A stretch of DNA of 64,000 bases from a phage, in NCBI GenBank assembly GCA_012557565.1, contig GCA_012557565.1_3926.1. One strand, written 5' to 3'. Shown here one piece after another: positions 50,912 through 51,037 of the stretch. The notes under the pieces were generated by a model. That model had not been told where the DNA came from, did no database searches, and was given only the letters and a program-made list of their open reading frames with translations. Every line of letters starts with the position of its first letter. Within the stretch, counting starts at the first letter, position 1. The position numbers were made by a program, and so were the translations under genes.

Positions 50912-51037
50912 CAGAAGACCGTTTACAGCAAACAATAAACAATCTATTTCTCTTATAAAGAAAAGGCGAAGGTTCGAATCCTTCACACGTTACGGCGTGT
51001 TGGTGTAATGGAAGCACTTAAGATAAATACGGTCTGG
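50912..51037 (+). ncRNA. conserved stem element copy 4 enclosing a circularly permuted tRNA-like module (Y-RNA-like candidate)
   Basis: 5' arm CAGAAGACCGTTTACAGCAAACA; then T-arm GAAGG-TTCGAAT-CCTTC; acceptor-like hairpin ACACG-ttacgg-CGTGT; D-arm-like GTGT-AATGGAA-GCAC; 3' arm ACGGTCTGG; no anticodon arm. Confidence 0.55.

Follow-up and report, generated by a model that had tools for sequence, protein, structure and literature searches.

Candidate Y-RNA equivalents, one of them enclosing a permuted tRNA-like module, beside a gene for a Ro60-shaped DUF2828 protein in a Felix-O1-like phage

Four related elements in the tRNA array of a Felix-O1-like myovirus (Ounavirinae), here called E1 to E4, are probably small non-coding RNAs equivalent to Y RNAs, and would partner a Ro60-shaped DUF2828 protein that is encoded 0.3-1.1 kb upstream; E4 would be the member that mimics a tRNA. 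This reading draws on sequence comparison and on a predicted protein model. The elements lie in a stretch of 64,000 nucleotides, hereafter the window (NCBI GenBank assembly GCA_012557565.1, contig GCA_012557565.1_3926.1). Across distant phages, the stem that the four elements have in common is conserved and covaries, the box beside it is conserved, and both adjoin the Ro60-fold gene strictly on its own strand.

Ro60/Y-RNA particles are conserved from bacteria to humans, and their mechanisms are poorly understood. To our knowledge, bacterial and phage Y RNAs have so far been found only beside genes that are recognisable as TROVE by sequence. In a sequence-only reading of the window, the segment now called E4 had been described as a circularly permuted, anticodon-less tRNA-like module with a conserved terminal stem, Y-RNA-like in kind and with an upstream vWA-domain gene as the candidate partner. 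Our analysis supports this central reading but not the picture of a lone module: E4 is one of four paralogues in the window, and what had been called its conserved 5' arm is indeed conserved, being the signature of the whole family.

Architecture of E4 and its shorter paralogues

ARAGORN places 25 tRNA genes in a + strand array at 50010-55238 and confirms that E4 lies between tRNA-Asp and tRNA-Lys. All of the features that had been listed for E4 are found in the sequence at the positions given for them, and RNAfold reproduced the proposed fold exactly, while adding a hairpin at 50947-50963 and an outer helix of 4 bp. From its ends inwards, E4 is predicted to consist of the outer helix, a 3x1 internal loop, an inner helix of 7 bp and, directly 3' of the stem's 5' strand, a single-stranded box, UUACAGCAA, which we propose as a putative protein-recognition motif. 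The stem encloses a series of a variable- or anticodon-arm-like (V) hairpin, a T arm, an acceptor-like stem sealed by a loop and a D arm (Table 1). After the acceptor-like stem, U51001 and G51002 occupy the U8/R9 position; a Levitt-type 15:48 pair is not conserved.

The permuted order of the module stands as it had been read, but E4 does not simply lack the anticodon part, since an anticodon-arm-like hairpin precedes the T arm. Similarly, a long stem does close the permuted module, but it is not a direct replacement of the anticodon stem, because linkers of 24 nt and 11 nt intervene between the stem and the tRNA-like core. A further connector helix, AUCU (50942-50945) with AGAU (51022-51025), was considered and dropped, as it is unsupported in Michonne/HP1.

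A search of the window with the arms of E4 found the same design four times within 900 bases, always on the + strand. Common to E1-E4 are an outer helix, an AGA/G 3x1 loop, a 7-bp helix (AGACCNN/NNGGUCU) and a box, (U/A)UACAGCAA, directly after the 5' strand. The differences among the copies are compensatory, both in the inner helix (AA/UU versus GU/AC) and in the outer helix (UGAC/GUCA, UUAC/GUAA and GGAGC/GUUCC). Measured from stem to stem, the cores of E1-E3 are 63-68 nt long and that of E4 is 120 nt; the V-T-acceptor-D interior occurs in E4 only, the interiors of the other three being short A/U-rich hairpins.

Table 1. Positions in the window of the E elements, the parts of E4, the proposed protein partner and the putative promoters
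Feature	Position	Strand	Sequence	Basis or setting
E4, long paralogue: stem and box core enclosing a YrlA-type tRNA-like module	50909..51040	+		RNAfold, comparison
E4 5' arm	50912-50934	+	CAGAAGACCGT + TTACAGCAAACA	
E4 3' arm	51029-51037	+	ACGGTCTGG	
E4 outer helix, 4 bp	50909-50912 / 51037-51040	+	UUAC/GUAA	RNAfold
E4 internal loop 3x1, between outer and inner helix	50913-50915 opposite 51036	+	AGA opposite G	
E4 inner helix, 7 bp	50916-50922 / 51029-51035	+	AGACCGU/ACGGUCU	RNAfold, covariation
E4 box, predicted single-stranded	50923..50931	+	UUACAGCAA	Directly 3' of the stem's 5' strand
E4 V (variable/anticodon-arm-like) hairpin	50947..50963	+	UUUCU-CUUAUAA-AGAAA	RNAfold; counterpart of the YrlA V stem-loop
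E4 T arm	50968..50984	+	GAAGG-UUCGAAU-CCUUC	Sequence, RNAfold
E4 acceptor-like stem sealed by loop	50985..51000	+	ACACGU-UACG-GCGUGU	RNAfold, compensatory changes
E4 D arm; loop positions A14-, G18G19- and A21-like	51003..51017	+	GUGU-AAUGGAA-GCAC	Sequence, RNAfold
E1, short paralogue	50175..50249	+	UGAC-AGA-AGACCAA-UUACAGCAA ... UUGGUCU-G-GUCA	Between tRNA-Glu and tRNA-Met; R1 64.1 bits
E2, short paralogue	50338..50411	+	UUAC-AGA-AGACCGU-UUACAGCAA ... ACGGUCU-G-GUAA	Between tRNA-Met and tRNA-Asn; R1 66.4 bits
E3, short paralogue	50820..50901	+	GGAGC-AGA-AGACCAA-AUACAGCAA ... UUGGUCU-G-GUUCC	8 nt 5' of E4; R1 68.4 bits
Ro60-fold protein gene, 471 aa: predicted N-terminal helical-repeat ring and C-terminal vWA domain, proposed partner	48429..49844	+		
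Two sigma-70-like promoters, 5' of the tRNA/small RNA array	49863..49982	+		Consensus scan

Conservation and covariation

Over this region the phage is 97-99% identical to its closest relatives, Shigella phage SFPB and the Sf13 group (Mooglevirus). More broadly, the region holding E3 and E4 is retained in ~240 of the 252 Ounavirinae GenBank records at 80-99% identity; the segment is thus not a remnant absent from relatives, an outcome that the sequence-only reading had named as one that would speak against it. Covariation in homologues, on which that reading had staked its proposal, was found in the terminal stem, among paralogues as well as among phages, and in the acceptor helix of E4. In 11 distinct E4 variants all six helices are kept, with 97.9% of the pair cells paired versus 42-52% when the partners are slid, and 3 of the 6 pairs of the acceptor helix are changed on both sides in a compensatory manner. 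This helix occurs in three versions in the Ounavirinae, namely ACACG/CGUGU, ACUCG/CGAGU and a 7-bp ACCCUUC/GAAGGGU, the last of which belongs to Michonne/HP1. The loop of the V hairpin varies in both sequence and length among relatives and is therefore not a decoding anticodon. Outside E4, the outer helix of E2 covaries from UUAC/GUAA to UUGC/GCAA in other Ounavirinae.

In the terminal stem, 5 of the 7 pairs are compensatory among 11 hand-picked sequences, where 98.7% of cells are paired versus at most 43% for slid partners. Among 49 distinct family sequences all 7 pairs are compensatory, 98.8% of cells are paired versus at most 45% for slid partners, and 126 cells carry double changes versus 33+-7 in shuffles. 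The consensus of the family is AAAG-R-N-U-N-C-UUACAGCAA(AC)...G-N-A-N-Y-CUG(U/G). Two variants of the stem, AGACCGA/CUUGGUCU and AGGCCAA/UUGGUCU, stay paired only through G-U wobbles. Since these wobbles pair in the + strand RNA and equal A-C mismatches on the other strand, they point to a + strand RNA, and not to DNA, as the molecule under selection.

A Ro60-shaped protein encoded upstream

The vWA-domain gene that had been noticed about 1 kb upstream ends 1065 nt 5' of E4 and lies on the same strand. Its product matches Pfam DUF2828 (PF11443) and DUF7788 (PF25043) as well as PHROG 850 ('RNA-binding protein'), and a search of NCBIfam gave no match. An AlphaFold model built on 39 homologues (pLDDT 86.9) resembles Ro60 over its full length, and the top nine PDB matches in Foldseek are all Ro60, Rsr or TROVE structures (1yvr, E=8e-8, TM 0.62/0.57). 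The architecture of the Ro60 family, a ring of HEAT-like helical repeats followed by a vWA domain with a MIDAS, is present in the predicted model; the MIDAS motif is intact (D279-x-S281-x-S283, T349, D381) and its residues are invariant among homologues.

By tblastn, the protein is present in 710 GenBank phage records, the hosts of which include Vibrio (schizo-T4), Aeromonas, Campylobacter, Listeria (P100-like), Staphylococcus, Enterococcus, Bacillus, Sinorhizobium and Mycobacterium. The homologues in Mycobacterium phages are annotated 'Ro-like RNA binding protein', and DUF2828 has been reported in mimivirus-like sequences and in plants. A 2024 preprint describes the orthologue in Bas63 (Felixounavirus), gp130, as Ro60-like and as countering the Ppl defence system, and its authors speculated that 'some tRNA genes ... 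are possibly Y RNAs', naming none (PMC11482910).

Stem and box elements beside the gene in other phages

A covariance model of the stem and box core, R1, was built from 11 well-aligned short elements with 7+3 spacing; it was restricted to these because MAFFT misaligned elements with 2-nt spacing or short interiors. In 75 sources (74 homologue loci and the window; 810 kb, both strands), R1 gave 53 matches at E<=1, all of them on the gene's strand and most within ~0.5 kb of the gene. A further 11 matches at E<=1 came from 80 bacterial or archaeal loci with the gene, from genomes or metagenome-assembled genomes (519 kb), and these too are all on the gene's strand and adjoin it. An exact-pattern scan of IMG/VR with CAGAAGACC-N5-CAGCAA returned only known Ounavirinae contigs and chance matches, and the chance matches were reused as negative controls for R1: in ~85 unrelated viral contigs (~750 kb) R1 found no match, the only matches of that scan being Ounavirinae. 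The 64 matches, from a total of ~150 loci, represent metagenome-assembled genomes as well as phages of enterobacteria, Aeromonas, Campylobacter, Listeria and Staphylococcus. Among the 53 are matches in Listeria phage List-36, Staphylococcus phage S-CoN_Ph2 and Campylobacter phage CP30A, and Aeromonas phage LAh_9 contributes seven in tandem. CAGCAA is kept in all of the 53 members found by R1, with a lone substitution at the first A (A in 52/53). A first descriptor, with fixed 7+3 spacing and one mismatch allowed, had been too noisy in distant loci; a stricter, RGAY-anchored descriptor gave 61 matches versus 9 in shuffles.

Two distant phages illustrate the arrangement. In Yersinia phage P778 (vB_YenM_P778, PP693300; 51% protein identity) the gene is followed by a tRNA array that holds three elements, the first being UGC-ACA-GGACUGU-UUACAGCAA...ACAGUCC-A-GCA, the second having the stem GGAUUCU/UGAAUCC and the third a V hairpin and T arm. 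In Mycobacterium phage Lolly9 (34% identity) the gene is followed at once by a tandem row of three elements in the order short-long-short, where the first short element is GGACACA-GACAGCAA...UGUGUCC-AG and the long one, GGACCCC-CACAGCAA...GGGGUCC-AG, contains T, acceptor and D arms. A stem and box around a T-(acceptor stem)-D module is found also in Sinorhizobium phage phiM7 and in the uncultured phage loci L055, L027, L049/L053, L085 and L022. Each phage carries several copies, of which usually one has a tRNA-like module. A second model, R2, was made from four non-Ounavirinae T-acceptor stem-D modules only, because MAFFT offset the 5' strand of the D arm between Ounavirinae and other modules. 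R2 recovers E4 in the correct register (50962-51022, 29.5 bits, E=4e-5), together with FelixO1 (25.5) and Michonne (22.6).

Some of these loci have further features of their own. The tRNA array of P778 is unannotated in its record, which shows small hypothetical open reading frames only, and a 690-nt gap in it (L206 7969-8661) holds isolated T-arm-like motifs (~8125 and ~8366) outside any called tRNA. In locus L022 (2216-2319; IMG/VR UViG_3300009502_001933), a T arm is followed by a D arm without the acceptor-like hairpin, a reduced form of the tRNA-like module. In LAh_9 (MK838115, L208 2826-3841), the space from tRNA-Cys to the DUF2828 gene is taken up by six tandem stem and CAGCAA elements, and a seventh, weaker element (3904-3960) lies just within the 5' end of that gene; an SPFH/band-7 gene is next downstream and an RNA ligase 2 gene is nearby, a neighbourhood typical of RNA-repair systems. 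List-36 (NC_024364) has a near-threshold match to ROOL RNA (L212 2420-2971; 91.5 bits, gathering threshold 99.1) in its tRNA array ~1 kb upstream of the DUF2828 gene, and a gene for an RtcB-type 'tRNA splicing ligase' 1.3 kb downstream of it.

Comparison with YrlA, the Y-like RNAs of phage phiLo and tRNA

In YrlA, the ends of the RNA pair as a stem; a GNCGAAN0-1G motif close to the 5' end, which is presumed to contact Rsr, is followed by a V stem-loop in some cases and then by a T arm, an acceptor-like stem-loop and a D arm (Chen 2014, PMC4201824). Binding by Ro60/Rsr in vivo, tRNA-type modifications (pseudouridine 55 and dihydrouridine) and service as a substrate of tRNA enzymes are further traits of YrlA. 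The parts of E4 stand in the same order as those of YrlA (RF02553), V, T, closed acceptor and D, within a stem formed by the RNA ends. YrlA is encoded on the strand of the Rsr gene and no more than 4 kb from it, with a shorter RNA, YrlB, as a companion in Salmonella (PMC4201824). E4 is on the same strand as, and within 4 kb of, a Ro60-fold gene, although this gene is by sequence DUF2828/DUF7788 and not TROVE, and E4 is accompanied by the shorter paralogues E1-E3, which have no tRNA module, as YrlB stands beside YrlA. Unlike in the YrlA system, the window has four such RNAs, which are embedded in a tRNA array. Relatives of E4 give sub-threshold matches to the Rfam YrlA model (threshold 69 bits), among them the long element of Lolly9 (37.7 bits), phiM7 (35.2), L055 (41.4) and L027 (35.8), and an ACAGCAA box is found in the place equivalent to that of the YrlA motif in all relatives.

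A phage precedent exists in Thermus phage phiLo, whose phiRo60 binds the phage Y-like RNAs Yrl1 and Yrl2 (PMC12135203; PDB 9KOP, 9L5Y). However, the phiLo protein is a recognisable TROVE, Yrl1 and Yrl2 were chosen on the basis of a CGAA motif and are located 5' of the gene, and neither a tRNA-like module nor an ACAGCAA box is described for them (PMC12135203).

With tRNA, E4 shares a UUCGAAU T loop, a GG in the D loop, a U8-like U, a 5-bp hairpin with a 7-nt loop and a variable region of 4-5 nt before the T arm. It differs from tRNA in its permuted order, in an acceptor stem that is closed by a loop (no free ends, no CCA) and in an anticodon loop that is unconserved. E4 is not a canonical cloverleaf, as its D arm lies 3' of the T arm, and ARAGORN makes no tRNA call on it. 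The Rfam tRNA model (RF00005) scores E4 at 30.9 bits versus a gathering threshold of 29, over 50918-50992, because the V hairpin aligns as an anticodon arm beside the T arm; this alignment leaves 2 pairs of the acceptor stem unformed and puts a 15-nt insert where the D arm should be. At gathering thresholds, Rfam finds only tRNAs.

Resemblance to Dictyostelium Class I RNAs

The Class I RNAs of Dictyostelium (RF01414) are ~60 nt long (42-65) and have an AAG start, a short covarying terminal stem, a variable A/U-rich interior and a CUG(U) end; the 5' strand of the stem is immediately followed by an 11-nt motif, CCUUACAGCAA, which is unpaired (Kjellin 2021, PMC7919456). They are abundant, stand-alone RNAs with a DUSE promoter, bind the RRM protein Rnp1A and are reported to be unique to Dictyostelia (PMC7919456). 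The phage consensus, AAAG-N5-(U)UUACAGCAA ... N5-CUG, is written in nearly the same letters, so that the Class I core can be recognised in all of E1-E4, and the motif positions that are invariant in Dictyostelia (U3, C6, C9, A10, A11) are among the best conserved in phages. The Rfam Class I model gives full-length but sub-threshold matches (model positions 1-56) to E2 (24.9 bits), E1 (23.4) and E4 (21.2), with a gathering threshold of 41.5; elsewhere, sub-threshold matches include two LAh_9 elements (29.6 and 28.0) and locus L075 (27.9), the overall range being 21-30 bits. A descriptor derived from the phage elements fits 19 of the 23 D. discoideum Class I RNAs, at 4-nt spacing instead of 2-3.

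The differences are also clear. In phages, 2-3 nt (3 in the window) separate the stem from CAGCAA, versus 4 nt in Dictyostelium. An outer helix and an internal loop are additional features of the Ounavirinae copies, the window copies end in CUGG, and the E4 core extends to 120 nt. Furthermore, the phage elements sit in a tRNA array and not in dictyostelid transcripts with DUSE promoters. We found no literature linking Class I RNAs to Y RNAs or to DUF2828. As far as sequence comparison goes, the resemblance to Class I RNAs is a lead and not a demonstrated homology, and E4 is Y-RNA-like of the YrlA type by its architecture, while formal tests place it outside Rfam YrlA, tRNA and Class I. That the phage stem and box RNAs and the Class I RNAs form one RNA class, the 'Y RNAs' of a second, DUF2828-type lineage of Ro60-like ring proteins, is a conjecture that we hold tentatively, with the odds somewhat against it. 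If it were true, Class I RNAs would be no dictyostelid invention for multicellularity but a widespread ribonucleoprotein (RNP) component shared or exchanged via phages and giant viruses. The function of Class I RNAs would then lie in RNA surveillance or conflict, with E4-type members adding a tRNA mimic to the scaffold.

Proposed mode of action

Matches to the sigma-70 consensus are found 5' of the array at 49863 (TTGACA-17-TAATAT, 10/12) and 49953 (TTGACA-18-TATAGT, 11/12); these are consensus matches only, and the likely source of a polycistronic precursor. From these promoters to 51300, no terminator-like site is predicted on the + strand except one that overlaps the first promoter. We propose that E1-E4 would be co-transcribed with the tRNA array from these promoters at ~49.9 kb and would be cut out by the tRNA-processing machinery, as suggested by the tRNAs that directly flank E1 and E2 on either side. 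Ro60 binds a conserved bulged stem of Y RNAs. By analogy, the module shared by E1-E4, a 7-bp stem that starts with A-G and ends with C-U, a 3x1 loop and the single-stranded UUACAGCAA box, may serve as a protein-binding handle, and the variable interior may be an effector module. In E4, the tRNA look-alike would let the RNP serve as a tether, gate or decoy for enzymes or nucleases that recognise tRNA, a type of role that has been proposed for YrlA.

We suggest that such an RNP may act in RNA surveillance or quality control, or in counter-defence, during infection, because the Bas63 protein is reported to act against Ppl and because RtcB, RNA ligase 2 and band-7 genes lie near the protein gene in Listeria and Aeromonas phages. 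E4 itself probably arose from a tandem-tRNA junction, in which the 3' half of one tRNA would have been joined to the 5' part of the next and their acceptor strands would have come to pair.

Weighing the alternatives

A number of observations weigh against the reading of E1-E4 as Y-RNA equivalents. The GNCGAAN0-1G motif of YrlA is absent from the 5' region of E4 (CAGAAGACCGUUUACAGCAAACA), where the stem and ACAGCAA box stand instead, and the Rfam YrlA covariance scan that had been suggested as a check on the sequence-only reading gave no match to E4 at E<=10 in either a 501-nt or a 151-nt scan (gathering threshold 69 bits). On the protein side, Pfam matches only DUF2828 and DUF7788 and not TROVE, and neither phmmer nor a profile search finds Ro60 in the PDB at E<=10; the Ro analogy rests on the predicted fold, because there is no TROVE or Ro60 match at the level of sequence. 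The T and D arms of E4 provide no covariation and are uninformative in this respect because they are invariant within the Ounavirinae, and the alignment of 49 family sequences (A4) was fitted to the model's structure. R2 is non-discriminating, because it scores true tandem-tRNA junctions as high as E4, and filtering by ARAGORN is needed. The folding energy of E4 is near chance (z = -1.1 to -1.4, equalled by 22-29 of 200 shuffles), and the z-scores of all four elements (-0.9 to -1.9) are uninformative in an A/U-rich context; the evidence that E4 is beyond chance is comparative, and thermodynamics alone prove nothing. Finally, co-location with the gene is equally compatible with cis-acting sites on the gene's own transcript.

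According to this last view, to which we give a small chance, stem and box are cis-acting signals, either for the processing or punctuation of tRNA precursors or as autoregulatory sites for the DUF2828 protein in an untranslated region, and E4 is a by-product of array evolution. In favour of this view, the elements are always on the gene's strand, directly up- or downstream of the gene or between tRNAs, with E1 and E2 abutting tRNAs and no separate promoters or terminators evident. However, a simple processing site leaves unexplained the up to seven tandem copies (LAh_9), the variable interiors and the recurrent tRNA-like module, and the stems, of 7 bp plus 3-5 bp, are short for RNase III. The nearest match in sequence and structure, the Dictyostelium Class I RNA, is moreover an abundant stand-alone RNA, and Y RNAs and YrlA accumulate as separate RNAs even though they are co-transcribed with Rsr (PMC4201824).

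It is very unlikely, in our judgement, that E4 is a decaying tRNA or tandem-tRNA remnant without a function of its own. Its retention in most Ounavirinae records with compensatory changes in the acceptor helix speaks against decay, as does the recurrence of the permuted order, inside the same stem and box, beside the homologous gene in phages of unrelated hosts. The tRNA score of 30.9 bits does exceed the gathering threshold, the array holds a second degenerate tRNA (50569-50649) and R2 scores tRNA junctions like E4, all of which would suit a remnant, but ARAGORN makes no call and the tRNA alignment includes the two mismatched acceptor pairs and the 15-nt insert. Least probable of all is that the repeats act as DNA, whether by serving as a promoter of the phage (TTTACA-17-AACAAT) or as a target for recombination or a homing endonuclease, or by spreading through the array as a miniature inverted-repeat element, since the promoter-like match at 50908-50936 (9/12), the HNH endonuclease genes interspersed in the FelixO1 array and the four dispersed copies with inverted-repeat-like arms are outweighed by the lack of a -35-like hexamer in E3, the asymmetry of the arms (AGA opposite G) in every copy, the strand-specific G-U wobbles that keep the pairing, the retention of pairing while primary sequence diverges and the position of 64/64 R1 matches on one strand relative to the protein gene.

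Overall, E1-E4 are best filed with the Ro60/Y-RNA kind, as putative RNA partners of DUF2828-type Ro proteins with a distinct recognition module and a wide phage distribution. For the Felix-O1 group, in which the protein counters Ppl and the preprint on Bas63 had only guessed, candidate RNAs are now located. More generally, a large, sequence-divergent branch of Ro-shaped proteins (DUF2828) appears to have its own candidate RNA partners and a different recognition module, for which a simple, testable RNA signature and a covariance model are provided. This signature is possibly tied to the Dictyostelium Class I RNAs, the function and partner of which have been open for two decades, and the question of whether DUF2828 proteins bind them is now testable. 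Phages of E. coli and Salmonella offer a tractable system in which to study the role of a tRNA-mimicking Y RNA during infection.

Other features of the array

Open reading frames of 51-59 aa, called mechanically on both strands, overlap E1 and E2 (50189-50393), and 'hypothetical proteins' are annotated over E elements in some GenBank relatives (e.g., ESh19, ESh20, HP1_22); these annotations are probably spurious. The degenerate tRNA at 50569-50649 (+) is tRNA-Tyr-like with an insertion, scores a sub-threshold 22.8 bits with the Rfam tRNA model and is not called by ARAGORN, and its counterpart is annotated as a pseudo-tRNA in FelixO1 and HP1.

Directly 3' of E4 and 5' of tRNA-Lys lies a 139-nt element (51043-51181, +) with a closing stem of ~20 bp (CUUUGCAGUGACUUAUGGAGCUAAU... 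/ ...GUAGGUUACUGCAAAG), for which Rfam gives no match. Its minimum free energy is -46.1 kcal/mol (z = -4.3), a stability reached by 0 of 200 shuffles. The same architecture recurs in FelixO1 (L001 3249-3391) with a different stem sequence, which suggests that this element is another conserved structured RNA.

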